This document shows positions 5,802 to 32,340 of a DNA stretch of 38,124 bases, piece by piece. The position numbers were made by a program, and so were the translations under genes. This DNA is from Fidelibacterota bacterium. Lineage in GTDB: Bacteria; Fidelibacterota; UBA2242. Under the pieces are notes generated by a model that made no database searches, was not told the DNA's origin, and saw only the letters and a program-made list of their open reading frames with translations. Numbering within the stretch: position 1 is the first letter of the stretch; the number at the start of each line of letters is the position of its first letter. The DNA lies in the NCBI GenBank assembly GCA_049975265.1, contig JBNGDF010000021.1, positions 3,599-41,722 of the forward strand. The letters are read 5' to 3'.

Positions 5802-7061
5802 ATGGAAAAAGAACTGACGATTGCATCGCTTCAAGCAATGCGAATCAAGGACCTGACCGATCTGGCGGTGAAACTGGAAATACCGGAGCATACCGGTTTA
5901 AAGAAGATTGACCTGATCTACAAGATCCTGGAAGCCAGTGCCCAAAAAGAGGGTCGCATCTTTTCTCAGGGTGTTTTGCAGGTAATGGATGAGGGTTACG
6001 GTTTTCTGCGTTCGGAAGAATTCAGCTACCTGCCCGGTCCCGATGATGTCTATATCTCCCCCTCCCAGATCAAACGATTCGGTTTGCGTACCGGTCATAT
6101 TGTTTCCGGGCAGATTCGACCTCCCAAGGATAATGAGAAATTTTTTGCGCTGCTGCGGGTGGATGCGGTGAATATGCTGGATCCCGAAGAGGTAAAAACG
6201 AAAAAACCCTTTGATACGTTGACCCCGCTTTATCCCGAAAGCCGAATCCAGCTGGAGACCGACCACAAGAATCTCTCCATGCGGGTGATGGACCTCTTAT
6301 GCCCGATCGGCAAGGGTCAGCGCGGCTTGATCGTTGCCCAGCCGAAAACCGGGAAAACAATTCTGTTGCAGCAGATCGCCAACAGTATTACAACGAATCA
6401 TCCCGAGATCATCCTGATCGTTCTGCTGATCGATGAACGTCCGGAAGAGGTGACAGACATGGAGCGCTCGGTGAAAGCGGAAGTGGTCAGTTCTACTTTT
6501 GATGAACCACCGGAGCGGCATGTTCAGGTATCCGACATGGTGCTGGAAAAAGCCAAACGCATGGTGGAGCTCGGTTTCCATGTGGTCATTCTGCTGGATA
6601 GTATCACCCGGCTTGCCCGGGCTCACAATGCTGTAGTGCCTCACAGCGGCAAGATTTTATCCGGCGGTATCGATGCCAATGCCCTGCACCGTCCGAAACG
6701 GTTTTTTGGCTCGGCGCGGAATATCGAGGAGGGCGGCAGCCTGACGATTATTGCCACTGCTCTGATAGATACCGGCAGCCGGATGGACGATGTGATCTTT
6801 GAGGAGTTTAAGGGCACCGGCAATATGGAACTCGTCCTGGACCGCCGGCTGACCGACCGCCGCGTGTTTCCGTCAATTGACGTAAACCGCTCCGGAACCC
6901 GCAAAGAGGAACTGCTGATGTCCTCGGCTGAATTAGCCCGGGTCTGGGTGCTGCGCAAACTGCTGAACGAAATGAATCCCGTAGAGGCAATGGAGTTTCT
7001 GCTGGAAAAAATGAAGCGGGTCAACAGCAATCGCGAATTTCTCAAGTCCATGAACCAGTAG
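5802..7061 (+). CDS. rho: Transcription termination factor Rho
   Basis: [54 protein letters not shown]; 419 aa with no N-terminal insertion. Confidence 0.98.
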
Positions 7062-7319
7062 CCGCTCCGGATCGCGCTTTGCTGTTCTGAATAAGCCGGC
7101 TCGGCTGTTCTACCCGACGTGGGGTTGCAAAAGATACCGTTATGGATCGGGGTCATATCCCAAGCGATTGTTTGGTTCGTCTGAAAAGAAACTCTTGACA
7201 ATTCCAGATATATCTATGAATTTAGCACGGGAACAAAGCAACGTTTTATATTTGGAAAATACAGGTGACATGTTAAGTCAAGTCAATGAAAGATGATGAG
7301 CAACCGGAGAGATATCTGA

Positions 7320-7556
7320 ATGACGGATAAATACAACGCCAGTAAGAAAAAAACGAAACTTCCCTATGATTCCAAAATTGATGAAAAATGTCAGAAATGT
7401 TCCGGCAATATTGTCTACCGGAGGAGTTCGTATTTTGGCAAAAAGACCTATTTCAAAATTTGTAACAATTGTGGCTGGTACAAACTGATGGATGCCGAAT
7501 CCTGGGCAAGGGCAATTGCCGATCATGGTGCTGCCGGTGAAGAGGGTATCGATTAA
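7320..7556 (+). CDS. Small putative zinc-ribbon protein
   Basis: 78 aa with CQKC and CNNC pairs about 20 aa apart; GGAG upstream; a TTGACA at 7195-7200 suggests a promoter ahead of it. Confidence 0.65.
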   Translation: MTDKYNASKKKTKLPYDSKIDEKCQKCSGNIVYRRSSYFGKKTYFKICNNCGWYKLMDAESWARAIADHGAAGEEGID

Positions 7557-7568
7557 TTTCGGGTATTA

Positions 7569-8189
7569 TTGAATTTTATCATTCCAGTTGCTTTAAACCG
7601 TGAGCTGACTCCGCTGCGACAGCATCTGTCAGCGGTGTTTGCCGGCGAGCAGGATGTCCGTCTGATATTTAAAAAGATAACACCCGGTTTCCGGCAGCCG
7701 GCAGAGATCGGAAGGATTACCGGCGATGTGGCTATCAATGCCGGGACCGCCGGTGCCATTGACGAGATGATAACACCCCTTCAGACTTTTTTGGCATCTT
7801 CCTTTATTAATCATCAGGGGCAAATCATCGATCAGCCCGAATTATTCCATAATTATAAATTTCTGGAAACCTTAATGCCGGTTCATTGGCAAAGGGGTCG
7901 GCTTTTGACTGTGTCGGAACCGGTGTTGTCTGCCCGCACTAGACAGCAGTTCCAGACCGGTTATCAAGCCGCCGCAGTGGATATGGAGGCTTTTACCGTT
8001 GCCCGCTACTGTCTTCAAAAAAAAATGTCCTTTCTTTCGCTGAAAGTGATTTCCGATACGGCGGATTCCGAAACTTTACTTAAATTTAAACAGAATTTGG
8101 ACAAAGCGATTGAAATTTTAAGTGAGCAGCTGGTCATTTTGATCAAAATCCTGCAGGAAAATCAGGAGCGAATGTTTCTCAATGGATGA
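7569..8189 (+). CDS. Nucleoside phosphorylase/MTA-SAH nucleosidase-like protein (PNP_UDP_1 superfamily)
   Basis: VALNREL, INAGTAGA, GRLLTV, AVDMEA and LKVISD motifs; the TTG start is uncertain. Confidence 0.75.
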   Translation: MNFIIPVALNRELTPLRQHLSAVFAGEQDVRLIFKKITPGFRQPAEIGRITGDVAINAGTAGAIDEMITPLQTFLASSFINHQGQIIDQPELFHNYKFLETLMPVHWQRGRLLTVSEPVLSARTRQQFQTGYQAAAVDMEAFTVARYCLQKKMSFLSLKVISDTADSETLLKFKQNLDKAIEILSEQLVILIKILQENQERMFLNG

Positions 8190-9054
8190 TCCGGGCAAAG
8201 TATCGGTAATCATTCCCACTTATAATCGGGGTGAAGTGCTGGAGCGGGCGATCAAATCCGTCCTGAACCAGACCTATCAAAACTATGAAATTATCGTGGT
8301 GGACGATGGCTCCACGGATAACACCCATCGAATTCTGAAGAAATACGGTAACAAAATCCGTTACTACTCCAAGCTGCACGGCGGGGTCTCTTCCAGCCGT
8401 AATTTCGGACTGGAAAAATCCGAAGGCAGCTGGGTCGCATTTCTGGACTCTGATGACTACTGGCTGCCGGAAAAGTTGGAAAGGCAGATAGAATTTGTCC
8501 AGCAGAATCCGGAATTCCTGATTGTGCAGACCGACGAAAAATGGATTCGCCACGGAAAGTTTGTCAATCCCATGAAGAAACACCGCAAATACGGCGGCTG
8601 GATTTTTAAACAGTGTCTGCCGCTCTGTATAGTAAGTCCGTCGGCGGTTATGGTGCATCAACGGGTCTTCAACGATGTGGGAGTGTTTGATGAAAATCTT
8701 CCGGTTTGTGAGGATTATGACCTCTGGTTGCGGATCTCCCGCAAATATCCAATCGGTTTGATCGAGGAGAAACTAATCGTAAAGACCGGTGGTCACGCGG
8801 ATCAGCTCTCCCGGCAGTACTGGGGCATGGATCGCTATCGAATTATGGCATTGGAGAATATTCTCAATAATGAGCTCAGCGCCGAGCAGTATGGGCTGGT
8901 ACTAAAGGAAATCATTAAAAAACTCACCGTGCTGGAAACCGGTCGCCGGAAACGTCACGATCTGCCGAACATTTTCGCCGGTAAGCTCAGCGAGTATCGG
9001 AGTAAACTTGAAGATTTTCGGAAAACCGGTCATCCTGACCACCGAACAGCTTGA
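8182..9054 (+). CDS. Glycosyltransferase family 2 (GT-A)
   Basis: VSVIIPTYNR, VVDDGSTD, AFLDSDD and EDYDLWLR motifs. Confidence 0.92.
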   Translation: MDDPGKVSVIIPTYNRGEVLERAIKSVLNQTYQNYEIIVVDDGSTDNTHRILKKYGNKIRYYSKLHGGVSSSRNFGLEKSEGSWVAFLDSDDYWLPEKLERQIEFVQQNPEFLIVQTDEKWIRHGKFVNPMKKHRKYGGWIFKQCLPLCIVSPSAVMVHQRVFNDVGVFDENLPVCEDYDLWLRISRKYPIGLIEEKLIVKTGGHADQLSRQYWGMDRYRIMALENILNNELSAEQYGLVLKEIIKKLTVLETGRRKRHDLPNIFAGKLSEYRSKLEDFRKTGHPDHRTA

Positions 9055-9943
9055 TCAGGAGGATCGCCGCTTTGATCTGTTTCTGCCTGACCGGCAGGAA
9101 TACGATATTACGCAGACGATTTTAGTGCAGCAAACTGACCGGAAATACCGCATCGTTGACGGTTTTGAAATTTTGACCGCCGGTTTACCCGCCGACCGGC
9201 AAGTCCCGGTGGTGGTTTTTCCACCCAATGCGCAAGTGCTGGATATTTTGCAGACGCTTGTACTCATTAAACAGAATCGGCGTCCGCTGTTGCCTGTCGA
9301 AATCTGCAGGATTTTCCAATTTGCCGGAAGTCAGAATAGCAGTGATGCCGAGATTATCGAGACGCTGTACCCGGCATTGGGTTTTCGGAAGGACCCCAAA
9401 ATCATCAAACAGTATCGCGACCTGGCGTCAATCGGTGCACCGCTTGATCAGTTTTTAATTGCGAAAAAAGCACCGCTAAAAATATGGCAGCTGGTCGCGA
9501 AACAGTACCGGAAAGTCCGGCATTATCTGGAAATGCTGATTCCTCTGCGCCCGACTTTGAGCCTTTTTGAAGAGTTGATTATCCATCTGTATGAAATAAG
9601 CCAGCGGGACAGCCTTTCCCCGGAAAAGCTGTTTGCGCAGCTCCGCTGGCAGGCATTATTACAGGCTGAAAATCAGACACCGCAAGAGCGGCTACAAAAA
9701 ATCCGGGTAGCGGTTTTCCAACGCCGTTATCCCGTATTGTCAGCTCATCGGGAAAAAGTGCGGGCGCGCCTCGAAAAAATATCCCTCCCGGACAATGCCA
9801 CCTTGCTTTGCGATGATACCTTTGAGAAGAAGGAGATCCGGCTGGTATGGTCTCTATCATCTCCGCAGGATCTGGTGAAGATGCAGGAGTTTTATTTTGC
9901 CGAGACAATTCAAAAACTGCGGAAACTGCTTGACACAATATAA
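9008..9943 (+). CDS. Hypothetical protein with degenerate ParB/Srx-like N-terminus
   Basis: ILVQ..KYRIVDGF..VPVVV resembles the ParB N-terminal fold; the remainder is helical with RRYP. Overlaps GT2 and abuts the radical SAM gene; start uncertain. Confidence 0.55.
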   Translation: MKIFGKPVILTTEQLDQEDRRFDLFLPDRQEYDITQTILVQQTDRKYRIVDGFEILTAGLPADRQVPVVVFPPNAQVLDILQTLVLIKQNRRPLLPVEICRIFQFAGSQNSSDAEIIETLYPALGFRKDPKIIKQYRDLASIGAPLDQFLIAKKAPLKIWQLVAKQYRKVRHYLEMLIPLRPTLSLFEELIIHLYEISQRDSLSPEKLFAQLRWQALLQAENQTPQERLQKIRVAVFQRRYPVLSAHREKVRARLEKISLPDNATLLCDDTFEKKEIRLVWSLSSPQDLVKMQEFYFAETIQKLRKLLDTI

Positions 9944-11119
9944 ATGAACCACAATAACCATTATCGGCGAATTTACATTTCGAAATCGGCTCTCCGGGAC
10001 GAAGCAACCGAGGCGATTCTCAGTAAATATCCGCGTCGAATTCAGCGTGTGATTCCTGATGACTATGACATTGCCGGCGAGACCGCCGGGATGGAACCGA
10101 AAACAGTTTTATGGCTCAACCGCTCAAAGGGCGATGTCGTCAAAAGCTGCCCCGGCACCGCCGAACAATATCTATGCTGTAATTATCAGGTCATTAACCA
10201 AACCCTGAACTGCCCCATGGGCTGCAGCTACTGTATTTTGCAATATTATCTCAATCAACCCGCGACAATAGTATACACCAATTTTGATGAAATCTTTACT
10301 GAGGTGCAAACAGAGCTTCAACGTCAGCCCCGGCGCTTTTTTCGGATCGGCACCGGTGAGCTGGGCGACAGTCTGGCGCTAGCCGGCTCGGCTCATTTTG
10401 CCAGGCGGGCTATCGAATGGTTTGCCGATATACCGAATGCATTGCTGGAGCTGAAAACCAAAACAACGGAGATTGAGGACCTGCTGAATTTGAGGCATGG
10501 CGGGCACACCGTCCTTGCCTGGTCACTCAATCCGCAGCCAATCATTGATCGGGAGGAACATAAGACCGCGCACCTGATGCCCCGATTAGCAGCAGCTAAA
10601 CGGGCGGCGGAAGCGGGTTACCTGCTGGCTTTTCACTTCGATCCGATATTGCATGTTCGGGATTGGAAGGAGCTCTACGGTGACCTGCTTGATGAACTGT
10701 ATCTGCAAATTGATCCCTCCCGGATTGCCTGGATCAGTATGGGGTCGCTGCGCTTTCCACCATCGATGAAAGCGAAAATAATCGCCCGTTATCCCCGGTC
10801 AACCGTCAGCTATGCCGAGATGGTGCGCGGTATGGACGGCAAACTGCGTTATCCGCGCCCTTTGCGTGTGCCGATGTATCGTTTTATATATCAAAGGTTG
10901 ACATCGATTTCATCACCGCCCTTCCTCTATTTTTGTATGGAAAGCCCGCTGGTCTGGCGCGAGGTTTTCGGCAGCGCCCCGGAAAGCAATGCCCATCTGG
11001 ATTTTATGTTTGCCGAAAGTCTGTACCGCCGTTTTCCGGGACTGCTGACCAAAGAGCCGCAACGAATAGATTATGAGCGGGGCTGGGGACTCGAAATGAC
11101 AGATAACGGGGAGCTCTAG
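9944..11119 (+). CDS. Spore photoproduct lyase-like radical SAM protein
   Basis: NCPMGCSYC (CxxxCxxC), IGTGELGDSL, LELKTK, AWSLNP, FHFDPI, DGKLRY and YFCMES motifs of the SplB-like family. Confidence 0.88.
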   Translation: MNHNNHYRRIYISKSALRDEATEAILSKYPRRIQRVIPDDYDIAGETAGMEPKTVLWLNRSKGDVVKSCPGTAEQYLCCNYQVINQTLNCPMGCSYCILQYYLNQPATIVYTNFDEIFTEVQTELQRQPRRFFRIGTGELGDSLALAGSAHFARRAIEWFADIPNALLELKTKTTEIEDLLNLRHGGHTVLAWSLNPQPIIDREEHKTAHLMPRLAAAKRAAEAGYLLAFHFDPILHVRDWKELYGDLLDELYLQIDPSRIAWISMGSLRFPPSMKAKIIARYPRSTVSYAEMVRGMDGKLRYPRPLRVPMYRFIYQRLTSISSPPFLYFCMESPLVWREVFGSAPESNAHLDFMFAESLYRRFPGLLTKEPQRIDYERGWGLEMTDNGEL

Positions 11120-11691
11120 TGGATAAAGTGATTTCTGCGGCGGGAGTTTCGCAGAATCTCGTTTAGCCAGAACAGCCCGATCAGGGTTTTGGCATCAGAG
11201 ATCTCTCCATTAAAGGCGGCGGCAATGGCGTCTTCAGCCGGGAGAGTAACAATGGCAAGATTTTCATCATCATCGGTGTGCTGCCGACTCGCTTTCAGGT
11301 TCCCGGCCCAGTAGAGATGCAGGAGCTCATTACTGTAGCCGACACAACTGTGAATCCGGCAGACCGGTAGCAGTCTGTCCGATTGGTAGCCGATTTCCTC
11401 TGCCAGTTCCCGCTGGACTGTATCGTCAGGCGATTCGCCGGGATCAATCTTGCCCGCAGGCAGCTCCAGCATCACTGCTCCGACGGGATAGCGATACTGT
11501 TTGACCATGATAATGCGATTGTCGCCCAGGTAGGGAATGGCAACAACGGCGCCGGGATGCTTAATGTACTCACGGGTGGATCGGCGTCCATCGGGTAATA
11601 ATATGTTGTCCCGGTAGACGTGCAGTAACCGCCCGGAAAAAACCTTCTGCGAGTCCAGTGTCTGCTCTGTAAAAAGTCCGTCTTTCACCAT
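11116..11691 (-). CDS. NUDIX hydrolase, ADP-ribose pyrophosphatase (NudF-like)
   Basis: Nudix box GKIDPGESPDDTVQRELAEEIG; HPGAV, QYRYPV and ISDAKT. Start at MVKDGL (11691) matches the typical family length. Confidence 0.9.
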   Translation of the reverse strand: MVKDGLFTEQTLDSQKVFSGRLLHVYRDNILLPDGRRSTREYIKHPGAVVAIPYLGDNRIIMVKQYRYPVGAVMLELPAGKIDPGESPDDTVQRELAEEIGYQSDRLLPVCRIHSCVGYSNELLHLYWAGNLKASRQHTDDDENLAIVTLPAEDAIAAAFNGEISDAKTLIGLFWLNEILRNSRRRNHFIH

Positions 11692-11733
11692 TCTGTGTAT
11701 CCGGAATCCGGATGATAATTGTGAAAAAGTATT

Positions 11734-11842
11734 GAGGAGAATGATCCAGAAAAGGGAGAAGTTCCCATGGATGGAGGGAATTAATTGGATGGAATCGCCG
11801 GGTGTAGATTGCCGACAATTCCGGAAATGGACCATTCTCCTC
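11734..11842. repeat. 15-bp inverted repeat closing a multi-stem structure
   Basis: GAGGAGAATGATCCA (11734-11748) pairs with TGGACCATTCTCCTC (11828-11842); the single mismatch is a G-U pair on the minus strand. Confidence 0.7.
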
Positions 11843-12073: not shown

Positions 12074-13948
12074 ATGATGCAAAATATTTTTAATTATTTA
12101 GTAAACAATGACTTATCTGGTGATTATCAACGTACCGGCGGGCTGCTTTCACCCGGTGCGATGCGGCGTAAATGGGATGTTCTGTGGAGATTCAATCCCG
12201 ACATTCATTCCATTTTGCGGGATGCGGATGATCTGGAAGGCGCCCGCAAGGGGCTTCTTGAATATCTGAATCTCAGAGAGGCAAATATTCTGAATGATAC
12301 CGAACGCTACCATATACTAGAAAAGAGCACTATTCTGGAAGCAATAACCGTCTTCAAGGTGATAATTTCACGATCGGCAGAAAGGGAAACCGGGATCAGC
12401 AACCTTAGAATGTTGTACAAATTGTCCCGGGGCGAAGAGGTGGAGCTGTCGGAGGGTTTCATTCTGGAATATGTTCATCTGTTCAAGGCGATTGACGGCA
12501 AAGCCGAGGTATATAGTCATTCGAAGGTGCTGGATGAAGGCGCCGATTTTCATCAGAAAAGAGGGCGCGAGGCGGCAGTTCAGCGGTCCCGCACCCTGGA
12601 CCGGGAGGTTCGTCAGATAGATGACTTTCTGAGCAGATATCCCAGCGGTATGGAGCCGGAGGTGATTGAAGATCGCCGACGGCACAAAGGGAGGATTTTG
12701 CGCTATTTCGGTGCCACGGACGATGATTGGAACAACTATCACTGGCAGTTGAAACATGTCATCCGAAAAGCCGATGTGTTGAAAGAGATCATCAATCTGA
12801 CCGAGGAAGAGGAGCGTTCGATCCGGCTGGCGAATCAAAACCGGATACCTTTTGGGATTACTCCGTATTATGTCTCCTTAATGGATAAAAATTCGTCGCG
12901 GAAACGGGACCATGCCGTACGTGCGCAGGTGATTCCACCGCTCCATTACACCCAGACAGTGGCGGAGAATCGGGAATCCCGTTCGGAAATGTTTGATTTC
13001 ATGGGAGAATACGATACGTCACCGATCCCACTGGTAACCCGGCGTTACCCTCAGATTGCCATTCTGAAACCCTATAACACTTGCGCCCAGATCTGTGTTT
13101 ACTGTCAGCGTAACTGGGAGATCAATCAGGTGCTTGACCCGCACGCTTTTGCCCGGTCTGAAACGGTGGCAACGGCGCTGCAGTGGTTCGAGGAGCATCC
13201 GGCTATCCAGGAGGTGCTAATTACCGGCGGCGATCCGCTGGTCATGAGTGATGCCAAAATTCATACACTTTTAGAGCGTTTTGCCGCCATTGAACATATT
13301 CAGCGGATTCGGATCGGCACGCGCATGCCGGTAGTGCTGCCCCAGCGCTTTACCGACGATCTAGTAAATATATTGACTAAATATCACGAATTTGGGAAAC
13401 GGGAAGTCGCCGTGGTCACCCATTTTGAGCACGTCTGGGAAATCACGCCGGCTGCTGTCGAGGCGATAAAAAAAATCAGGGATCGGGGCATCGGGATTTA
13501 CAACCAGGCGGTTTTTACCTTTGAGAACAGCCGCCGGTTTGAGCTGGCTGCCCTGCGCCGGCAGCTGCGGCTGGCAGGGGTGGACCCCTATTATACCTTT
13601 AACGCCAAGGGCAAAGAGGAGACCCGTGCCTACCGGGTGCCGATTGCCCGGTTGCTGCAGGAGCGCAAAGAGGAAGCCCGGCTCCTACCGGGTCTCGACC
13701 GTACCGATGAGCCGGTCTTTAACGTCCCCCGACTGGGGAAAAATCACCTGCGCGCCGGGCAGGATCACCAGTTGCTGGCGATTCTACCCGATGGACGGCG
13801 ACTTTACCGCTTTTTACCCTGGGAAAAGAATATCAAGCTCGTTCCGACCTACGTCCACCGGGATGTCTCCATCTACGATTATCTAAAAATGCTACACAAG
13901 CGGGGTGAAGATATTGCAGATTACCAGACGATCTGGTACTATTACTAA
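12074..13948 (+). CDS. KamA-family radical SAM/PLP aminomutase, long form, glutamate 2,3-aminomutase-like
   Basis: WNNYHWQLKH, ITPYY, TRRYP, CAQICVYCQR, LITGGDPL, IRIGTRMPVVLPQRFT, THFEH, PYYTFNAK and FNVPRLGK motifs. Confidence 0.9.
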   Translation: MMQNIFNYLVNNDLSGDYQRTGGLLSPGAMRRKWDVLWRFNPDIHSILRDADDLEGARKGLLEYLNLREANILNDTERYHILEKSTILEAITVFKVIISRSAERETGISNLRMLYKLSRGEEVELSEGFILEYVHLFKAIDGKAEVYSHSKVLDEGADFHQKRGREAAVQRSRTLDREVRQIDDFLSRYPSGMEPEVIEDRRRHKGRILRYFGATDDDWNNYHWQLKHVIRKADVLKEIINLTEEEERSIRLANQNRIPFGITPYYVSLMDKNSSRKRDHAVRAQVIPPLHYTQTVAENRESRSEMFDFMGEYDTSPIPLVTRRYPQIAILKPYNTCAQICVYCQRNWEINQVLDPHAFARSETVATALQWFEEHPAIQEVLITGGDPLVMSDAKIHTLLERFAAIEHIQRIRIGTRMPVVLPQRFTDDLVNILTKYHEFGKREVAVVTHFEHVWEITPAAVEAIKKIRDRGIGIYNQAVFTFENSRRFELAALRRQLRLAGVDPYYTFNAKGKEETRAYRVPIARLLQERKEEARLLPGLDRTDEPVFNVPRLGKNHLRAGQDHQLLAILPDGRRLYRFLPWEKNIKLVPTYVHRDVSIYDYLKMLHKRGEDIADYQTIWYYY

Positions 13949-21827: not shown

Positions 21828-22487
21828 ATGTCTGAAATTTCCGGACGATTGAATATTCTTTATGAAGATAATCATCTGCTGGTGCTCTGCAAGCCAGCCG
21901 GAATGCTGGTGCAGGGCGACCGGACGGGCGATGTAACCCTGCTGGATTTGGCGAAAGACCACATTCGTGAGAAGTACGCAAAACCGGGCAAGGTCTACCT
22001 GGGACTGGTACACCGGCTGGATCGTCCGGTGTCCGGTGTGATCCTTTTTGCCCGTACGTCCAAAGCGGCGGGGCGGCTGATGAGGCAGTTCCAGCAGCAG
22101 CACCCCCGGAAAATATACCACTGCCTGACGGAGGGAGAAATACCCCTCAGCGGCGAGTGGCGGGACCAGATCGAGCGGCGGGGAGCAACGAGTGTTATCG
22201 GTAGCGGCGGAGCCAATGCGGTGTTGCGTTTTCAGCGGGTTAAATTCACAGCGGGTGTATCACTGGCGGAGGTAGACCTGCTGACCGGAAAACACCACCA
22301 GATTCGGGTCCAGTTTGCCGGGCGCGGATTCCCGCTGCTGGGGGACTTTCGCTACGGGTCGAAAATCAAATTTCCCGGGCGTTCCATTGCCCTCCACGCC
22401 AGGGAGCTGCAGATTGTTCACCCCACCCGGCAGGAAACGCTTACCTTTCGCTGTGATCTACCGGACTATTGGCGGGAATATGTTTAA
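21828..22487 (+). CDS. RluA-family pseudouridine synthase
   Basis: ILYEDNHLLVLCKPAG, VHRLDRPVSG (catalytic Asp), TGKHHQIRVQ, PLLGDFRYG and LHAREL motifs. Confidence 0.93.
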   Translation: MSEISGRLNILYEDNHLLVLCKPAGMLVQGDRTGDVTLLDLAKDHIREKYAKPGKVYLGLVHRLDRPVSGVILFARTSKAAGRLMRQFQQQHPRKIYHCLTEGEIPLSGEWRDQIERRGATSVIGSGGANAVLRFQRVKFTAGVSLAEVDLLTGKHHQIRVQFAGRGFPLLGDFRYGSKIKFPGRSIALHARELQIVHPTRQETLTFRCDLPDYWREYV

Positions 22488-23427
22488 TGAAGTGATTCAA
22501 ATCGCGGGAATAATCGATCGCCGCGAAGCCGAAATGCTCCTGGAGTGCGGCGTTGACCTGCTCGGTTTTCCTCTGCGACTGGCAGTACACCGTGAAGATC
22601 TGAGTGAAGCGGAAGCCGCCCGGATCATCCGCCAGCTACCCGACCCCTCCCGCGCCGTATTGATTACCTATCTCGATAACGCCGGTGAGATTGTTGAGTT
22701 CTGCGCCGAGTTGGGTGTCGGTATTGTGCAGCTCCACGGACCGGTTGCCGTAACGGAATTGCGAAGGCTTCGGAAAATCCAACCGGAACTGAGAATTGTC
22801 AAAAGTCTGGTGGTTCATAAAAACAACCGCAGGCAGTTGTTGCGTGAGATGGAGCAGCTCAGCTCACTGGTGGATGCGTTTCTTACCGACACCTATGATC
22901 CGGACAGTCGGGTTTCCGGCGCCACCGGCAAAGTTCACGACTGGCGAATCAGCCGGGAACTGGCGGAGCATCCGCCAAAACCATTACTTCTCGCCGGTGG
23001 TCTGACGCCGGAAAATGTCTATAAAGCCATTCGGTTTGTCAAACCGGATGGCGTGGATGCCCACACGGGGGTCGAAGCGCCGGATGGTCGCAAGGACCGG
23101 AAAAAGGTACTCCGTTTTGTCGCTGAAGCCCGCCGCGCCTTTGCCGAGCTGTATACAACCGACACGGTCACGCTTCCGATTGATGGCGTACTGGACCTGC
23201 ATAGCTTTAGTCCCCGGGAAGTGAAGGATTTGGTGCCTGAATATTTAAGCGCCTGCCGGGAAAAGGGAATCTTTTCGGTGCGGATCATTCACGGCAAAGG
23301 CACCGGCACGTTGCGGCGCACGGTGCAATCCATCCTGACAAAATCGCCGCTTGTAGAGTCTTTTGAAACGGTGGATGACAGCGGCGGCGGCTGGGGTGCG
23401 ACGAGTGTAAAAATATGTGAATTTTAA
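22480..23427 (+). CDS. Phosphoribosylanthranilate isomerase-like (TrpF) domain fused to an Smr/MutS2-type nuclease domain
   Basis: N-part: IQIAGI, VQLHG, FLTDT, GATGKVHDW, LAGGLTPENV, GVDAHTGVE. C-part: LDLHSF, RIIHGKGTG, GGWGAT. One continuous frame; ATG 22480 overlaps the rluA end. Confidence 0.88.
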   Translation: MFNEVIQIAGIIDRREAEMLLECGVDLLGFPLRLAVHREDLSEAEAARIIRQLPDPSRAVLITYLDNAGEIVEFCAELGVGIVQLHGPVAVTELRRLRKIQPELRIVKSLVVHKNNRRQLLREMEQLSSLVDAFLTDTYDPDSRVSGATGKVHDWRISRELAEHPPKPLLLAGGLTPENVYKAIRFVKPDGVDAHTGVEAPDGRKDRKKVLRFVAEARRAFAELYTTDTVTLPIDGVLDLHSFSPREVKDLVPEYLSACREKGIFSVRIIHGKGTGTLRRTVQSILTKSPLVESFETVDDSGGGWGATSVKICEF

Positions 23428-25557: not shown

Positions 25558-25980
25558 TTACAGGATCAGGAGCAGGAAAACCATCACAAACAGTGCGACG
25601 GTTTCTACGATACCGATTACCATAAAGTAATTGGCGGTGCCTTTACCGGTTTCCGCCAGTGAATCCGCCGCCCGTGCGGCTACTTTGCCCTGAAAGAAGG
25701 CGGAAAAGCCCATCGCCATGCCGCCGAAAACACCGGCAGCCAGCAGCATCAGCGGATCCTTGTCGCTGCCGCTGATGAAAAGCATCAGCAGAAAACCATA
25801 AATCGTCTGGGTCAGTGCTACCCCGGAAAAAGCCACCAGCATAAAAGGCGCCGGTTTGTTGTTGGCGAAACACTTTTTCCAGCCGCCGACCGCAGCCTGT
25901 GAGGCGATTCCGGTTCCAAAGGCAGAGCCGACAGCGGCTAACCCCAATGCTGCCGCGGGTCCAATCATTCCAATATTCAT
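25558..25980 (-). CDS. atpK: V/A-type ATP synthase subunit K (4-TM proteolipid)
   Basis: Four TM helices; LTQTIYG, FFQGK and GIVETVALF motifs. Confidence 0.93.
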   Translation of the reverse strand: MNIGMIGPAAALGLAAVGSAFGTGIASQAAVGGWKKCFANNKPAPFMLVAFSGVALTQTIYGFLLMLFISGSDKDPLMLLAAGVFGGMAMGFSAFFQGKVAARAADSLAETGKGTANYFMVIGIVETVALFVMVFLLLIL

Positions 25981-27824
25981 TCTATTTCCCCTTCTGTTTT
26001 ATTTTGTTTTTTATCACTAAACGGCTTGTACTCATAACCGGTCCACTCCATGCCCAGTTGTCCGGAAAATTCCAACACATTAAGACGGATGCCGTGCACA
26101 ACCACCGAGAGCAGCCCCATGACAATATTCAGTCCGTGTCCAATCAGCAGGACCAGAATTGCCGCCGGAAATGCGAATCCCTTCATCATCGGTGCGGCGA
26201 TATTATTGAAGCTGGAGGCGATTGCCACCGTCGCCATGCCCACCGCAAAGAGGCGGATGTAAGAGATAATATTTGAAAACGAGCTGATGGAATCGAGAAA
26301 GGTATTAAACGCACCGCCCAGCCCAGCCAGTACGCCTTTCATAAAGCTGACCCCTTTTTCCTGTTTCATAAATAGAATGACCATCAGCAACCCAACGGTG
26401 ATCAGCGGTACCGTGAAGCCCGGAATTTCCATCCCCAGAACCAGATTGAGTACCACCAGGAACAACCCCGCCATCAGCGCCGTCCAGCCCAGATGGGCGA
26501 TGCTCTTCAGCTCCGGCAATGCGTTGAAAAAGTTCATGATATTCGCTAGACTCAATTGCGTAATGGCGATTATGAAGCAGATGAACATGACTTTCTGTTG
26601 CGGATCGACGGTCAGTTCCGGAAAAAGTTCGGGAAATGTCGCCAGCTGCGGAATCGTCAGTGCCTTAAAAAAGGGCAGTGCCGCAATCTGAACAGCACCG
26701 AACCAGTTCCCGGTTATCGTTCCCCAAGCAATTGTTGTGGCGCTGAGCACATAAAACAGTTTGATCGCCAGCGGCAGGGATTTCCCGCTTTTCAGCGATT
26801 TGTAGTGAGCAACCATGCACAGGAGCAGGAATATAAATCCGTACCCTGCGTCCCCGATAATCATTGCCACAAAGATGGCAAAAAAGACGAGAAAGTATTT
26901 GCTGATATCGTATTCCCGGTAGCCGGGCACGGTTCCAAGAAAGTCAAAGACCGGTTTGATGATTTGGGTCCATTTACTCATTTTCAGCAGGGTGGGCGGA
27001 TTGTCGGTCAGCTCCGGCTCTTCCGCCAGAATACCCCAGCCGTTCTTTTCCGCGGCTTTGAACAGGTCCCCGATTTTTTCCTCGGGGCAATAGCCCTGCA
27101 GATAGAGGATTTCGGTCACATCCTGCATGCCGGCTTTAGCCTGCTCAAATTCCAGCTGTTTTTCCAGCTTTTCCTGATAATTTGCAATGAGCTCCTGTGC
27201 GCCCAGCAGGCGTTGCAGGCGGAGATCGATATCTTCACGCCGGACGCTCAATGAAGCCAGCTCTTTCGAAACAGCCGTATGTGTCTCAGGGGGTGGAAAT
27301 TCCTCTTTGATATCCAGGCGGATATCCGGAGATTCAGACATCAGGGCGATTTTCAGCTGGTTTTTCTCCTCCTGAAGGATCTCTATAATTGCCCCCTCGG
27401 GCAGTTTTTTCAACACCATTTTGTCCGTGTTGTAGAGTCGGAGATAGATTCCTTCTTGCCTTAGCTCTTCAATATCCTGCGCAGAAACCTTGCCCCAGGT
27501 TTCAAACCAGTTCAGCAGGCTCTTTTTCTCTTCAATGTCTGCCTGAATCTGCTGTTTCTCGGCAGCCAGCGACAATACCTCTGCGACGACTTTCGGGGCG
27601 GAAATCTTAATAGCCTGCGGAGTCTCTTCAGGCGTGACGTTGCTCAGAATCTGCCGGCATTTTTCCGTTTGGCGCAATGCTGTTTCCAGCTCTGCAATAT
27701 TTTCTGATTGAGGTGGTTTGATATGCTGAATATGGATCACCCCGACGCTGCGCAGCTCCTTCAGCGCCGCTTCCCGATAGGGAGCGCTGATAAAAAGGGT
27801 CACTTTTTGCATCGGAACGATCAT
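25977..27824 (-). CDS. atpI: V/A-type ATP synthase subunit I
   Basis: NPPTLL, GDAGYG, SYIRLFAVG and HGIRLNVLEF motifs. Confidence 0.95.
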   Translation of the reverse strand: MIVPMQKVTLFISAPYREAALKELRSVGVIHIQHIKPPQSENIAELETALRQTEKCRQILSNVTPEETPQAIKISAPKVVAEVLSLAAEKQQIQADIEEKKSLLNWFETWGKVSAQDIEELRQEGIYLRLYNTDKMVLKKLPEGAIIEILQEEKNQLKIALMSESPDIRLDIKEEFPPPETHTAVSKELASLSVRREDIDLRLQRLLGAQELIANYQEKLEKQLEFEQAKAGMQDVTEILYLQGYCPEEKIGDLFKAAEKNGWGILAEEPELTDNPPTLLKMSKWTQIIKPVFDFLGTVPGYREYDISKYFLVFFAIFVAMIIGDAGYGFIFLLLCMVAHYKSLKSGKSLPLAIKLFYVLSATTIAWGTITGNWFGAVQIAALPFFKALTIPQLATFPELFPELTVDPQQKVMFICFIIAITQLSLANIMNFFNALPELKSIAHLGWTALMAGLFLVVLNLVLGMEIPGFTVPLITVGLLMVILFMKQEKGVSFMKGVLAGLGGAFNTFLDSISSFSNIISYIRLFAVGMATVAIASSFNNIAAPMMKGFAFPAAILVLLIGHGLNIVMGLLSVVVHGIRLNVLEFSGQLGMEWTGYEYKPFSDKKQNKTEGEIE

Positions 27825-28432
27825 ACTGCCGCCGTCTCCTTTTTCTTTTCAATCTTGGCTTTGGAGATTTTCCCGCGCACCACCTCCGAGGTCCGCTCGT
27901 CGCCAAGGTAAATCTGAATCACCCGGATATTCTCCCTGGTCTCGGGAATTTTGACCTTGTCAAAGAGGTTGATTCGTTGAACCGTGATCCGGAGCTCTTC
28001 CTGCAATACCGCCATCTGTTTTTCGAGGGTTTTAATTTTCAGCTGCTGGCGGATTTTCTCTTTGCAGGCTTCGATTCCGGCATCCACCCACAGCGGCATA
28101 TCGAAACGATCGTAGTCTTCATCCGTGAAAATGACCTTTTCGAAAATTTCAATGTCAATGCCCGCTATGTTCCCGCTGGTGGTGACGACCTCCTCGATGG
28201 AAAAGAGGGCACCGATATCAATCTCTTCGCCAAAGACATCCACCCACTGAAAAATCTCCTTTTCGAAGCGCTCTATTTCGGCTCTGATTTTATCGATCTG
28301 CTGAGAGATTTGACGGATCTCCGCCACCAGCTGGGTCTTTTTCAACTCCAGCGTCGGCAGATAACGAGTATAGCGTTTCAGTGCCTCTTTCTGCTTTTTC
28401 AGTTCGTTCTTGGTGAGTTTGATTTTAGCCAT
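27821..28432 (-). CDS. atpD: V/A-type ATP synthase subunit D
   Basis: YLPTLELKK, QRINLFDKVKIP and IQIYLGD motifs. Confidence 0.95.
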   Translation of the reverse strand: MAKIKLTKNELKKQKEALKRYTRYLPTLELKKTQLVAEIRQISQQIDKIRAEIERFEKEIFQWVDVFGEEIDIGALFSIEEVVTTSGNIAGIDIEIFEKVIFTDEDYDRFDMPLWVDAGIEACKEKIRQQLKIKTLEKQMAVLQEELRITVQRINLFDKVKIPETRENIRVIQIYLGDERTSEVVRGKISKAKIEKKKETAAV

Positions 28433-28444
28433 GGAATCTGCCGC

Positions 28445-29962
28445 TTATTTGCGCTTTTTCCTATCTTTGCGAGCTGATTTTGTTTGCCTGGATTTTTTCT
28501 TTTTGGATTTTTTCGTATCGCTTTCCGGGGCGGTCTCTTTTTCCGGCGAGCTGTTCTTGTCCGGCTGTGTCTCTTCTGGTGTATTCTGAGCGGAGTCTGT
28601 CGCTTCCTCCGGTTCACCCTTTTTCACCTCTTTATGGTCTTTATCTCCGGATTCGGTTTTGGCGTTGTGGTTTTTCGGCCAGAACTTTTTGATCAGATCG
28701 GTTCGGAAGCCGGTTTCATCGGGATTAAAGCACTCCGCCAGGGTTTCCCAGCCGCTGTCCAGCGCTTCTTCCAGGGATATATTGACCTTCAGATTCATCA
28801 TCCGGTCTTCAAAGAGTTTTCCGTATTTCAGTAATTTTTTGTCCCAGTCACTCATCCGGAAGCCCATGGCGCGCTTTTCTTCGGTCTCGTTGTACTGGGC
28901 GTAAAGCTGGATCATGCCATCCATAATGGCGCGGTGATCATCGCGGGTTTTGTCATTCACCTGCTGTTTCAGGCGGCTCAGGGAGCCGAAGGGTTCGATG
29001 CGTCCGTTGCGCAGATAAAATTGTCCTTCGGTGATATAGCCCGTATTGTCGGGTACTGGATGGGTGACGTCGTCGCCGGGCATGGTGGTTGCCGCCAGTA
29101 CAGTTACGGAGCCGGCGTCATCAAAGTCCACCGCCTTTTCATAACGTGCCGCCAGCTGGGAATAGAGGTCTCCGGGGTAGCCGCGATTCGACGGTACCTG
29201 CTCCATGGTGATGGCGATCTCCTTCAGGGCGTCGGCGAAATTGGTCATATCGGTCAGCAGAACCAGGACATTTTCCCCCTTCAGGGCAAATTTCTCCGCC
29301 ACCGCCAGACAGAGGTCCGGTACCATTAATCCTTCCACAATCGGGTCGGAGGCGGTATGGATGAAAAAGATCGAACGGCTCAGGGCACCGCCCTCTTCCA
29401 GGGTATTTTTGAAATACATGTACTGATCATATTTCAGACCGATGCCACCCAGAATAATCATGTCCACTTCCGCCTGGAGCGCGATCCGTGCCAGCAACTC
29501 GTTGTAGGGTTCACCGGAAACCGAGAAAATCGGCAGCTTCTGTGATACCACCAGCGAGTTGAACACATCGATCATGGGGATGTTGGTCCGGATCATGTTA
29601 CGGGGGATAATCCGTTTTGCCGGATTGACCGACGGACCGGCAATCTCAATCAGGTTTTCGGTCAGTGCCGGTCCTTTGTCCCGGGGAATCCCGCTGCCGT
29701 TGAAGATCCGACCGAGCATGTCATCCGAAAAGGTGACTCGCATGGGATTTCCCAAAAAGCGGACCTCATCGTTGGTGGAGATGCCCTGACTACCGGCGAA
29801 CACCTGCAGCGAGACGATATCCCGGTCCAGCTTAATGACCTGAGCAAGTGATTTGCCGCGGGAGGTGCTGATTTCCGCCAACTCCTCGTAGGAGATATCC
29901 TCCGCCTTGACCGTGATGACATTTCCGGTAACACTTAAGATTTTATTGTACACTTTCTGCAT
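28445..29962 (-). CDS. atpB: V/A-type ATP synthase subunit B with long charged C-terminal tail
   Basis: [45 protein letters not shown] and PFGSLSRL motifs. Confidence 0.96.
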
Positions 29963-29993
29963 GGTCTGAGATTTCCTCTTCTACAGCGTTTAT

Positions 29994-31847
29994 TTATTTT
30001 TCCTTTTGTTTCGTTTCTTTGGATTCCTCCTGGTCGCCGGCGTCCGGTTTTTCTTCATCTTCTGGCGTGTTCTTCTCCTCTGGCTGCTTCTCTTTTGGTA
30101 TTTTTTCTGCGGATTCTGTGTCTGAGGTATTTTCTTCAATCAGACGGGAGATTTTGGTTTCCTGTTTTTTAAATTCATCATCCTTCATATCGATATAATT
30201 CCAATCGATAAAGAGCTGCCGCAATTTATTGAAAAAATTGCGGGCTTCATCTTTTTCCGTCAGAGTGAAGTGGTGACTCAGGACATTGTACACATAGTTG
30301 AAAATATATTTCTGGCGTTCTGGCGATGTTGCACCGTCGACCGCATCAAAGGAATTTTGCTGAAGATAGACATTATCCAGAAATTCGGATTTCAGATAAA
30401 TTAAAAAATCTTCGATGGAGGTGCCCTCTTCTCCGACAACCAGCATCATCTGGTGAACATCGTGCCCTTTGCGCAGAATGTCGCGGGCATACTCGATCTG
30501 TTCGCTTTCGATAAAACTGTCGTATTTCGACCAGCTCTCCAGTGGGTCGATGGCGGGATAGCGTCTGGCATTGGAGCGATCCCGGGAGAGACCGTGGAAA
30601 GCGCCAACCACTTTCAGAGTTGACTGGGTCACCGGTTCTTCAAAATTGCCGCCCGCCGGGCTGACGGTACCGCCGATGGTCAGACTGCCGAAGCTGCCAT
30701 CTTCAAATTCAACCAGACCGGCGCGCTCGTAAAACTGGGCGATGCGGGACTCCAGATAAGCCGGGAATGCCTCTTCGCCGGGGATCTCTTCCAGGCGTCC
30801 GGAGAGCTCGCGCATGGCTTGCGCCCAACGGGAGGTGGAATCAGCCAGCAGCAGCACATCCAGTCCCATCTGTCGGTAATATTCTCCCAGCGTCGCCGCC
30901 GTATAGACCGAGGCTTCCCGGGCGGCGACGGGCATGGAGCTGGTATTACAGATGATGATTGTCCGTTCCATCAGCGATTTCCCGGTGCGTGGATCGGTGA
31001 TTTCCGGGAATTCCCGCAGCGTTTCCACCACCTCACCGGCGCGCTCACCGCAAGCCGCAATGATGACGATATCGGCTTCGGCAAAGCGGCTGGTAACCTG
31101 CTGCAAAACGGTTTTGCCGGCACCGAAAGGTCCCGGGATACAATAAGTTCCGCCTTTGGCAACCGGAAAAAAGGTATCAATGATCCGGGTCTGGGTAACC
31201 AGCGGCTCCTCGGGAAGTTGTTTCTCGCGGTAGAATTCAATCGGCAGCTTCACAGGCCATTCAAAATACATGCTCAGTTCGTGCTTTTCGCCCTTATCGT
31301 TTGCAATGGTCGCAATGGTGTCGGTGACTGTGTATTTTCCCTTTTCCACAATGGAAACGACCTGATAATCTCCCTGCAAGTGAAAGGGTACGAAAATCTT
31401 ATGATCAAAAATACCCTCCGGAACAGTACCCAGCAAGCTGGCAGCCTTGACCGGATCCCCCTTTTTAATCGCCGGCGTAAATTCCCATTTCTGCTTGAAA
31501 TCCAGGGCATCCAGAATCACGCCGCGCTTCAGGAAAAAGCCGTGCAGTTCCGCCAGCTCATTCAACGGGTTTTGCAAACCGTCGTAGACCATGCCAAGCA
31601 GTCCGGGTCCCAGCTGTACCGACAGCATCTCACCGGAAAACTCCACCGCATCGCCGACTTTCAGCCCCTTGGTGATTTCGAACACCTGCATATAGGCGAT
31701 GTTGCCCCGAATCTTGACCACTTCGGATTTCAGGCGGTCCTCACCGGTAATGGCATAACCTACCTCGTTCTGGATAATATTACCCTCAAATTCCACGGAA
31801 ATCATGTTCCCGTTAATGCTGATAATTGTACCTTTAGTCTTGTTCAT
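29994..31847 (-). CDS. atpA: V/A-type ATP synthase subunit A with acidic C-terminal tail
   Basis: Walker A GPFGAGKT; CGERAGE; NTSSMPVAAREAS; ADSTSRWA; PGEEAFPAYL. Confidence 0.97.
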   Translation of the reverse strand: MNKTKGTIISINGNMISVEFEGNIIQNEVGYAITGEDRLKSEVVKIRGNIAYMQVFEITKGLKVGDAVEFSGEMLSVQLGPGLLGMVYDGLQNPLNELAELHGFFLKRGVILDALDFKQKWEFTPAIKKGDPVKAASLLGTVPEGIFDHKIFVPFHLQGDYQVVSIVEKGKYTVTDTIATIANDKGEKHELSMYFEWPVKLPIEFYREKQLPEEPLVTQTRIIDTFFPVAKGGTYCIPGPFGAGKTVLQQVTSRFAEADIVIIAACGERAGEVVETLREFPEITDPRTGKSLMERTIIICNTSSMPVAAREASVYTAATLGEYYRQMGLDVLLLADSTSRWAQAMRELSGRLEEIPGEEAFPAYLESRIAQFYERAGLVEFEDGSFGSLTIGGTVSPAGGNFEEPVTQSTLKVVGAFHGLSRDRSNARRYPAIDPLESWSKYDSFIESEQIEYARDILRKGHDVHQMMLVVGEEGTSIEDFLIYLKSEFLDNVYLQQNSFDAVDGATSPERQKYIFNYVYNVLSHHFTLTEKDEARNFFNKLRQLFIDWNYIDMKDDEFKKQETKISRLIEENTSDTESAEKIPKEKQPEEKNTPEDEEKPDAGDQEESKETKQKEK

Positions 31848-32340
31848 AAGTCAATTCTGTATAGGTTAAAAATTTTTCTTTGCCTCTTTCCTTGTCAAAA
31901 CTGCTGAGACGTACCAGGATTTGCAGCTTCAGATGGTATAGAATGAAAAACGCCATATCCGAATAGTGACCAAACTCCATTTCGTCGAGCAGCTGCCAGC
32001 GCAGGCGCAGCAGCTTTTTCTCCACCTCCAGTGGATTGCCCTCTTTCAGAACCGCTGGCGGGAAGAGGCGCGGCTTGTGTTCCTGCCGGCTTTTCAGCGC
32101 CTGCCGGTATTGCAGCAGTTCGCGGCGCAGGGCGTGCTCGAAGAGCTGGTAGGCACGGTAAACGGGCAAATCATCCTTCTGCGGAGTGGTTGCATTTATG
32201 GAAACCGCCGTGAGAATCTGATAGTCACCGGAACTCATCCACTTTTGTCCTTCGGTGAGAAATGCCCCGACCCCGATCGCCGGTTCCTGATCGAAAACCA
32301 GCATCGGAAGCTGTGCCGCATAGTAGATATATTTGTCCAT
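31834..32340 (-). CDS. DUF2764-family protein (V-ATPase subunit C-like)
   Basis: YYAAQLP N-terminus and LLRLRW..YHLKLQILVR; position between subunits E and A. Confidence 0.8.
   Translation of the reverse strand: MDKYIYYAAQLPMLVFDQEPAIGVGAFLTEGQKWMSSGDYQILTAVSINATTPQKDDLPVYRAYQLFEHALRRELLQYRQALKSRQEHKPRLFPPAVLKEGNPLEVEKKLLRLRWQLLDEMEFGHYSDMAFFILYHLKLQILVRLSSFDKERGKEKFLTYTELTYEQD

Follow-up and report, generated by a model that had tools for sequence, protein, structure and literature searches.

A nucleosidase, a GT2 glycosyltransferase, a ParB-like protein and a radical SAM enzyme resembling spore photoproduct lyase (SPL) form a single-copy chromosomal module that is conserved across many bacterial phyla. 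The module was identified in a 38,124-nucleotide stretch of DNA from a Fidelibacterota bacterium (contig JBNGDF010000021.1; hereafter, the window). Its parts have known folds; the gene set falls outside every known system against which it was compared. No published description was found in the open-access literature, as judged chiefly from listings, and the module thus appears to be undescribed, as a preliminary description had proposed. Our preferred reading, tentative and at less than even confidence, is that the module would glycosylate thymine in DNA, as in the thymine-dioxygenase/ParB/GT-A (base-J-like) route but independently of oxygen. What we observe is the set of genes, how it is conserved, the protein folds and the altered residues; the steps of the mechanism are inferred.

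Operon structure and conservation

Five ORFs lie on the plus strand: a Zn-ribbon protein (78 aa; 7320-7556), an MTAN/HpnG-like nucleosidase of PNP_UDP_1 fold (206 aa, TTG start; 7569-8189), a soluble GT2 of GT-A fold belonging to a distinct subfamily (290 aa; 8182-9054), a divergent ParB-family partner (311 aa, TTG start; 9008-9943) and the SPL-like radical SAM enzyme (391 aa; 9944-11119). The junctions are, in gene order, a 12-nt gap, an 8-nt overlap, a 47-nt overlap and an abutting pair. A TTGACA hexamer on the same strand (7195-7200) probably serves the operon promoter as its -35 element. When 17 upstream regions of relatives are aligned, 14 have it at the equivalent position; a consensus scanner did not include it in its list of sigma-70 pairs. 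Re-analysis confirmed the five-ORF operon, with its overlaps and TTGACA element, as initially described. The upstream regions are those of a plain conserved promoter, no conserved palindromic operator being seen by eye in the 17 aligned sequences. No Rfam family or tRNA was found within the window.

The first gene stands outside the core module. The Zn-ribbon protein carries two invariant CxxC pairs (CxxC...CxxC), and 13 of 17 members give weak matches to Zn_ribbon_Top1. Its gene is present in 33 of 201 genomes of the phylum, all from one order, and lies apart from the operon in 7. We conclude that it is an order-restricted passenger and not, as was originally thought, a component of the system.

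Among 38 loci from relatives, the nucleosidase, GT2, ParB-like and SPL-like genes are contiguous in 24, the Zn-ribbon gene also being present in 20 of these. The other 14 include 4 loci consistent with this order but cut by a contig end, 3 whose upstream side is cut off, 1 with the ParB-like and SPL-like genes only, 5 with the SPL-like gene alone and 1 with a different paralog. Co-occurrence was assessed in 201 Marinisomatota, 151 Desulfobacterota and 300 Gammaproteobacteria genomes, where the GT2 subfamily was found in 112, 88 and 41, respectively. The SPL-like gene accompanies it in 110/112, 84/88 and 39/41 of these genomes, against 21/89, 7/63 and 6/259 of the GT2-negative ones. Pooled over the three phyla, the presence of the GT2 predicts that of the SPL-like enzyme in 233 of 241 genomes. 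Conversely, the GT2 is missing from 21 of 131 SPL-positive Marinisomatota genomes, an absence that a repeat search confirmed in 5. In Marinisomatota, the nucleosidase and SPL-like genes occur together in 125 genomes, singly in 4 and 6, and are both absent from 66; the nucleosidase accompanies the SPL-like enzyme in 125/129 genomes. Fusions to the SPL-like enzyme involve the ParB-like part in three cases (P0169, P0220, P0236) and the nucleosidase in five (P0231, P0237, L182, L305, L377). Synteny, fusions and matched presence and absence thus bear out the proposal of a conserved cross-phylum neighborhood, and the GT2-SPL-like pairing holds in all three phyla.

Composition varies between branches of the family. 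In other branches, a short-chain dehydrogenase (SDR) gene replaces the ParB-like gene; the gammaproteobacterial set is GT2-nucleosidase-SPL-like-SDR, and in 30 gammaproteobacterial SPL loci an SDR lies within 1.5 kb in 16 and a nucleosidase in 20. No recurring LPS or EPS genes were found among the 30 commonest neighbor clusters, and the neighborhoods show no recurrent transporter or lipid gene. Genes for dus adjoin or lie near the GT2 in 9/80 loci and in 3/60 gammaproteobacterial loci, tRNA synthetase genes are nearby in some other loci, and uvrD and topA are neighbors in some lineages. The viral contigs searched yielded no member of the SPL-like subfamily, and viral GT2 matches are generic (36% identity over about 200 residues at best). 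Plasmid and phage records returned distant SPL or GT2 homologues only; searches of phage, plasmid and defence collections, among them a PADLOC model test, recovered no member of the module.

Relationship of the proteins to known families

The SPL-like enzyme matches Pfam SPL (PF20903, E 2.2e-29), has its CX3CX2C motif (C90/C94/C97) in 108/108 members, and has SPL as its sole strong structural match (Foldseek TM 0.70-0.72 to 4FHC-type structures, E about 1e-24; next 6e-5). It nonetheless fails SplB membership, with 117.2 bits against a cut-off of 400 for TIGR04070 and 54.9 against 437.55 for TIGR03886, despite the SPL fold and kept phosphate-binding residues. Besides fold and motif, it shares with SplB (G. 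thermodenitrificans structures PDB 4FHC-4FHG, 4RH0) the SAM ligands Lys174/Ser195. The phosphate-binding Arg273/Lys309 and base-binding Tyr339 of SPL, as given in PMC3467042, map to R270 (108/108), K300 (105/108) and Y329 (108/108). Other positions differ. The H-donor Cys140/141 (Bacillus position) is replaced by Glu139 (E in 104/108) and the Tyr98/99 radical relay by Ile98 (Tyr in just 10/108), a loss in keeping with a radical whose fate is more than simple quenching. Both thymine-O4 ligands are changed (Arg193 to Ala192, Glu268 to Gly267), and a six-residue deletion removes the hairpin tip with Arg304/Tyr305 in all 19 non-SplB sequences aligned, from three branches. These branches were separated, and no more than separated, with a quick tree in which SplB sits on a long branch. 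The enzyme further differs from SPL in its partner genes and in four extra conserved cysteines (Cys69, Cys78, Cys79, Cys331). According to PMC3467042, Clostridium SPL keeps an alternative H-donor cysteine in the loop at the Ser76 position; Cys69 coincides with this S76C in one alignment and is one residue off in another, and we have accordingly softened the reading that the catalytic cysteine is simply missing. In branch C, neither the K300/Y329 equivalents nor the extra cysteines are present. The suggestion that the host is unlikely to sporulate is consistent with the absence of a Spo0A_C match in its 95%-complete genome, B. subtilis serving as positive control.

The nucleosidase (PNP_UDP_1, PF01048, E 2.8e-12) retains the catalytic and ribose-binding features of MTA/SAH nucleosidases, namely Glu12/Asp197 (MTAN numbering) and a Met-Glu pair; the residues here are Glu12, Asp163 and Met139-Glu140, all invariant or nearly so. 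The loop that follows the GxAG motif in MTAN is missing, which suggests a substrate with a bulky 5' substituent. Its best NCBIfam match is HpnG (TIGR03468, E 3e-13), and scores are below the cut-offs for both TIGR01704 (35.4 bits vs 73.8) and TIGR03468 (49.7 vs 187.1). Its tracking of the SPL-like gene in Marinisomatota argues against a general 5'-deoxyadenosine sink. In Desulfobacterota, different MTAN-like lineages adjoin the SPL-like enzyme, an arrangement that fits generic 5'-deoxyadenosine removal.

A Pfam search with the ParB-like protein gave no match. Its structural model matches KorB, ParB and Noc, and profile comparison pairs it with canonical ParB (hhalign probability 96.6%, E 5e-10), so that the ParB N-domain and helical domain are recognizable by both structure and profile. 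The N-domain is followed by HTH-like helices and then by a conserved helical domain at about residues 178-245; the last part is a C-terminal domain. Unlike ParB/Spo0J, KorB and Noc, the protein has a degenerate CTP-binding GxRR box (DGFEI), an added helical domain and no adjacent parA, none being found in the window; a separate canonical ParB is encoded on another contig of the host genome. The second Arg of GxRR is kept in 31/31 partners from other phyla and in 2/27 from Marinisomatota. A full ParB partner is absent from two of the three branches. The helical domain is matched in 15/17 long representatives of branch A, while the short partner segments of branches B and C match it with hhalign probabilities of 18% and 0.5%; one helical domain universal to the three branches is thus unconfirmed.

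Conservation within the set is highest for the GT2 (PF00535, E 7e-39). The protein contains DSDD and EDY motifs together with a basic/aromatic patch of conserved residues (W121, R123, K133, H134, K136, W140, R220, K247, K257, R258). Of the 8,000 candidates scored, at least 7,978 clusters of 90% identity fall within its subfamily at E<=1e-60. The best named matches are the polysaccharide enzymes TuaG and EpsE, and all NCBIfam scores are below cut-off. The GT2 is soluble, as initially described, and by these scores and its neighborhoods does not belong to LPS or capsule clusters. The R...DDD...EDY/F motif attributed to DNA-modifying GT-A enzymes in bioRxiv 10.1101/2023.12.21.572611 is present (R...DDD...EDY); as it is general to GT2 enzymes, it is weak evidence for DNA modification.

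Proposed thymine glycosylation and alternative readings

To our knowledge, the known thymine-glycosylation systems are those of phages and trypanosomes. A DNA or nucleotide target is suggested here by SPL being the sole strong structural match, by the kept phosphate and base ligands, by the ParB-family partner and by a soluble GT2 with a conserved basic patch. In the proposed scheme, the ParB-like protein would use its helical domain to bind the radical enzyme, which it would hold on DNA. The 5'-deoxyadenosyl radical would abstract a hydrogen, probably from the 5-methyl group, of a thymine lying in the dipyrimidine/phosphate pocket. Where SPL quenches via Cys141, a putative second metal site (Cys69/78/79/331), postulated from cysteine conservation, would oxidize the thymine radical, and addition of water would yield 5-hydroxymethyluracil, whose hydroxyl the GT2 could then glycosylate. 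Each turnover would use up SAM, and 5'-deoxyadenosine would be removed by the nucleosidase; in branches where an SDR takes the place of ParB, this SDR would reduce an over-oxidized (formyl) product.

The scheme finds a parallel in phage thymine dioxygenases, for which PMC13229309 describes ParB-dependent and ParB-independent subclasses, a ParB that works without its CTP-binding residues, and glycosyltransferases as commonest neighbors. The division into branches with and without ParB, and the degeneracy of the GxRR box, mirror this pattern. With phage 5mYOX/ParB/GT and trypanosome JBP/JGT base J systems, the module would share a ParB-family activator whose CTP residues can be dispensable, this branching, a GT-A with R...DDD...EDY and, presumably, the thymine target. 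It differs in that the oxidizing enzyme is a radical SAM protein and not an Fe/2OG dioxygenase (no Pfam match to an Fe/2OG thymine dioxygenase was found within the operon), in being chromosomal and single-copy rather than phage-borne, in the HTH-like helices kept by its ParB, and in the added nucleosidase and, sometimes, SDR. Several observations count against DNA glycosylation: the base-flipping hairpin tip is deleted and the thymine-O4 ligands replaced; the module resides on chromosomes, and searches of viral contigs, phage records and plasmids did not find it; ParB is missing in two branches, and branch C has neither K300/Y329 nor the extra cysteines; and some SPL-positive Marinisomatota genomes (21/131, above) have no GT2. 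Of the two functions initially put forward, base modification or glycosylation coincides with the reading preferred here, itself an inferred one, whereas spore-type repair is unlikely, as lesion-binding and H-donor residues are changed.

Replacement of the ParB-like gene by an SDR gene in other branches leaves room for a small-molecule or lipid pathway, which we consider rather unlikely, though a serious contender. In hopanoid side-chain synthesis, HpnH, HpnG and HpnI combine a radical SAM enzyme, a PNP-fold nucleosidase and a GT2 in one pathway. By the same logic (adenosylate, deadenylate, reduce, glycosylate), the radical enzyme would add 5'-deoxyadenosyl to an unsaturated acceptor, or modify an NDP-sugar; the nucleosidase would remove adenine, the SDR reduce the freed ribose and the GT2 add a sugar, the helical domain being merely a structural subunit. 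The HpnG match (far below cut-off), the missing MTAN loop, the tracking of the SPL-like gene by the nucleosidase in Marinisomatota, the gammaproteobacterial SDR and the loss of the DNA-flipping hairpin are all in keeping with such a route. However, the radical enzyme is SPL-like and not HpnH, all scores being below cut-offs, and a ParB partner that retains its Arg in every non-Marinisomatota case is hard to explain. The differing MTAN-like lineages of Desulfobacterota fit generic 5'-deoxyadenosine removal, and the neighborhoods lack a recurrent transporter or lipid gene. The host genome (95% complete) contains no PF13243 match that would denote a squalene-hopene cyclase, which led us to reject a hopanoid substrate, and no dedicated SDR was found in it (best 113 bits, against at least 265 for members).

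The same radical and glycosylation chemistry might act on a tRNA or rRNA pyrimidine, e.g., ribothymidine 54 or a dihydrouridine pair, a target for which no base-flipping hairpin would be needed. Loss of the dsDNA hairpin with retention of the phosphate ligands, the single-copy housekeeping distribution, the dus and synthetase neighbors and the abstraction of H from a dihydropyrimidine by SPL (PMC3467042) speak for this target; yet the ParB-family partner is a DNA-associated protein and these neighbors are lineage-specific housekeeping context, not recurrent across phyla, and we regard the proposal as improbable. Slightly more improbable still is non-spore repair of DNA carrying SP-like lesions or other pyrimidine adducts; the ParB-like protein would load the enzyme, the nucleosidase would remove 5'-deoxyadenosine, and the GT2 would be accessory or only historically linked. 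The SPL fold, Cys69 in the loop of the Clostridium alternative H-donor and the uvrD/topA neighbors would suit it, as would the SPL homologues for which a repair role in Nautilia (PMC2628731) or LexA regulation in alpha/beta-proteobacteria (PMC3323433) has been proposed; these homologues may or may not belong to the module's subfamily. Repair does not explain why the GT2 predicts the SPL-like enzyme across three phyla; the lesion-binding residues and hairpin are changed, and the upstream regions show no operator-like palindrome. As for an ordinary cell-surface GT2 lying by chance beside unrelated housekeeping genes, the TuaG and EpsE matches point that way, but cross-phylum synteny, fusions, matched presence and absence and the lack of recurring LPS/EPS genes make it highly improbable; the co-occurrence data largely refute it.

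Distribution and significance

The module is common across the sampled Marinisomatota, Desulfobacterota and Gammaproteobacteria. In its broadest form, the thymine reading would have thousands of bacterial species, described as mostly anaerobic and microaerophilic, carry in their chromosomal DNA a glycosylated hydroxymethyluracil ("bacterial base J") made by O2-independent radical-SAM chemistry and loaded by a repurposed ParB; we rate this extension as unlikely. If true, it would represent an unrecognized DNA mark of cellular organisms, epigenetic or protective in role, and the first SPL-family enzyme to modify rather than repair DNA. Whether the product is a DNA glyco-mark, a small molecule or a glyco-modified tRNA, each would, if true, entail new radical chemistry and a new modification. 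In many annotations from probably non-sporulating organisms, the radical enzyme of the module goes under the name "spore photoproduct lyase" or "DNA photolyase".

Organization of the operon

Inspection of the DNA bore out the preliminary description of five plus-strand reading frames, preceded by a TTGACA at 7195, that encode a Zn-ribbon protein (7320-7556), a nucleosidase (7569-8189), a GT2 protein (8182-9054), a ParB-like protein (9008-9943) and a 391-aa radical SAM enzyme resembling spore photoproduct lyase (SPL-like; 9944-11119). The junctions, in order, are a 12-nt gap, an 8-nt overlap, a 47-nt overlap and an abutting pair, again as described. None of the five proteins has a transmembrane segment (maximum 19-residue hydropathy ≤1.46). 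A domain search of the window showed the operon to be flanked by rho and a convergent NUDIX gene, with housekeeping genes around; its G+C content (46-53%) is similar to that of the surrounding DNA. The nearest named homologues of its products are in Marinisomatota (Neomarinimicrobiota) MAGs, and every operon gene is single-copy in the host genome (2.86 Mb, 95% complete).

The convergent gene, NudE-like, occupies 11116-11835 on the minus strand, an arrangement shared by many relatives belonging to this order and absent from the loci read in other phyla. Further along, the window carries a KamA-family radical SAM gene (12074-13948; 624 aa, with a long N-terminal extension), of which contig C2 carries a second, 57%-identical copy and contig C3 a shorter one. 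Phosphoribosylanthranilate isomerase and Smr domains are fused in one frame at 22315-23427, and a minus-strand V/A-type ATPase operon spans 25558-32936 (subunits K, I, D, B, A, DUF2764 and E).

Conservation and distribution

The SPL-like gene is present in 38 of 41 related genomes. At 24 of 38 loci read the nucleosidase, GT2, ParB-like and SPL-like genes are contiguous, with the Zn-ribbon gene in front in 20; four more are consistent with this order but cut by a contig end, five hold the SPL-like gene alone, three lack the upstream side, one has the ParB-like and SPL-like genes only, and one is another paralog. GT2 is the best-conserved member among relatives (59-84% identity, alignment A1) and the ParB-like protein the least (21-75%). 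The TTGACA is retained in 14 of the 17 upstream regions compared, and no obvious operator was found in these regions. Neither the SPL-like, GT2, nucleosidase nor Zn-ribbon gene was found in G007, a genome of the same family (90% complete), reflecting either loss of the whole operon or an assembly gap. The Zn-ribbon protein, initially counted as part of the module, is instead a passenger, since it occurs in 33 of 201 genomes of the phylum, none of them outside this order, and in seven its gene sits apart from the operon.

Conservation of the neighbourhood across phyla, raised in the preliminary description as a point to check, is supported by synteny, by gene fusions and by matched presence and absence in three phyla. 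Scanning with a GT2 profile gave 80 loci among the matches listed, of 572 confirmed; those listed fall in Marinisomatota, Calditrichota, Desulfobacterota, Omnitrophota, Acidobacteriota, Nitrospirota, Spirochaetota and Gammaproteobacteria. In 50 of the 80 genomes, picked among those without an adjacent copy, the SPL-like gene was sought elsewhere and found in 47. Matched searches (thresholds, set by us, of 1e-55 for GT2, 1e-30 for SPL-like and 1e-12 for the nucleosidase) gave counts that are descriptive rather than tests, kin genomes not being independent: both GT2 and SPL-like genes in 110 of 201 Marinisomatota genomes, GT2 only in 2, SPL-like only in 21 and neither in 68; 84, 4, 7 and 56, respectively, in 151 Desulfobacterota genomes (three of the four GT2-only cases resting on weak matches); and 39, 2, 6 and 253 in 300 scored gammaproteobacterial genomes (one more was unscored). 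Nucleosidase and SPL-like genes occur together in 125 Marinisomatota genomes, the former alone in 4, the latter alone in 6 and neither in 66. The nucleosidase link is loose in Desulfobacterota, where 69 of 151 genomes have a match, many being HpnG- or MTAN-looking and located elsewhere, and where the gene adjoins the SPL-like gene at 5 of 30 loci read. This loose link and the absence, on recheck, of the GT2 subfamily from five SPL-like-only genomes speak against a strict four-gene rule. The module is real and widespread. No member was found in viral contigs, phage records, plasmid records or PADLOC. A search of an open-access literature library found no description of the module; as far as searched, it is an undescribed gene system assembled from known folds, with a putative function.

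Fusions, branches and partner proteins

Gene fusions tie the parts of the module together. Among the best 150 representatives, 17 are long: three ParB-like+SPL fusions (P0169, P0220, P0236), two joining nucleosidase, helical domain and SPL (P0231, P0237), and 12 joining the helical domain to SPL. Loci L182, L305 and L377 encode additional nucleosidase-SPL fusions. The SPL-like family divides into three branches. In branch A, which includes the enzyme of the window, the partner is the ParB-like protein or just its helical domain; branch B has an N-terminal extension; branch C lacks the extra cysteines described below, and its nucleosidase is C-terminally extended. An SDR gene is frequent with branches B and C (≤1.5 kb away at 16 of 30 gammaproteobacterial SPL loci), and no SDR of this type was found in the host genome. 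A separate sub-branch (L323 and L324, in genomes G298 and G333) has a ParB-like gene nearby and no GT2 subfamily member found genome-wide.

The predicted ParB-like structure (pLDDT 91.4) matches KorB, ParB and Noc, and its profile aligns with canonical ParB across 160 columns. A canonical ParB is encoded separately in the host genome. All 31 partners examined outside Marinisomatota retain the GxRR arginine, versus 2 of 27 within that phylum, a lineage-specific loss. The nucleosidase is nearest to MTAN structures and retains the catalytic Glu/Asp; its loop after the GxAG motif is shortened. Four other PF01048 matches exist in the host genome; among those inspected, which rank below the two strongest, one resembles AMP nucleosidase and another is a weak PNP-like match. 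GT2 carries DSDD and EDY motifs, together with invariant basic and aromatic residues specific to its subfamily.

Folate genes (metF, folD, cyclodeaminase) recur near GT2 in Omnitrophota (loci L093, L097, L100, L115 and L133, mostly from that phylum); in Desulfobacterales and Gammaproteobacteria, dus genes are the recurring neighbours. L397, L401 and L414 belong to the same set. A gammaproteobacterial neighbour is presumably a 5-formyl-THF cyclo-ligase-like gene. These folate and dus neighbours are probably housekeeping context. At L080 a PD-(D/E)XK nuclease-like gene (6347-6787) sits between nucleosidase and GT2, the SPL-like gene being elsewhere.

The SPL-like enzyme and its candidate function

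SPL is the sole strong structural match of the SPL-like model (pLDDT 94.5); RadicalSAM.org gives SPL only as a subgroup (PMC9477430). Residues were mapped onto B. velezensis SplB, with roles taken from PMC3467042. The enzyme retains the SAM ligands as well as Y329 and the phosphate ligands R270 and K300. Glu139 stands in place of SplB Cys141 and Ile in place of Tyr99; other residues replace Arg194 and Glu269, and a deletion removes the tip of the hairpin. Extra cysteines are conserved among 108 sequences (Cys69 in 106, Cys78 in 91, Cys79 in 107, Cys331 in 108), Cys69 falling at the Clostridium-type H-donor position in one alignment and one residue off in another. The enzyme is not a spore-type SPL.

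On the linkage, folds and residue changes we base a tentative proposal, that the module might carry out oxygen-independent, base-J-like glycosylation of thymine in DNA. An SPL-type pocket, which binds thymine and in repair forms a thymine allylic radical, would be a natural anaerobic stand-in for a thymine dioxygenase. If the active site does not quench the radical, SAM would be consumed, and the nucleosidase would be present for that reason. The nearest experimental precedent is provided by phage thymine dioxygenases, which comprise ParB-dependent and ParB-independent subclasses and whose most frequent co-occurring genes are GTs (31%); mutating the CTP residues of the phage-system ParB was without effect, and the word "radical" is absent from the main text of that report (PMC13229309).

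The proposal is weakest in three respects: the hairpin is lost, ParB-less and SDR-bearing branches exist, and the distribution is chromosomal and housekeeping-like. Three other readings stay alive for these reasons. A small-molecule pathway, for which we assume HpnH/HpnG/HpnI logic as the model, seems rather unlikely; in its hopanoid form it is at odds with the host genome, where no cyclase was found. That tRNA is the target strikes us as improbable, and lesion repair as slightly more so. Of the possibilities first put forward, base modification or glycosylation and non-spore repair, glycosylation is the one we favour, its chemistry being what we infer, with repair kept as a lesser rival.

A more distant SPL-family domain occurs in an 802-aa frame at locus L064 (5736-8144; contig C2 of genome G008), fused to type I restriction specificity domains (Methylase_S). 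With an N6-methylase/HsdR-N gene and AbiEii, RadC and Fic genes as neighbours, it looks like an SPL-family enzyme within a restriction-modification-like island.
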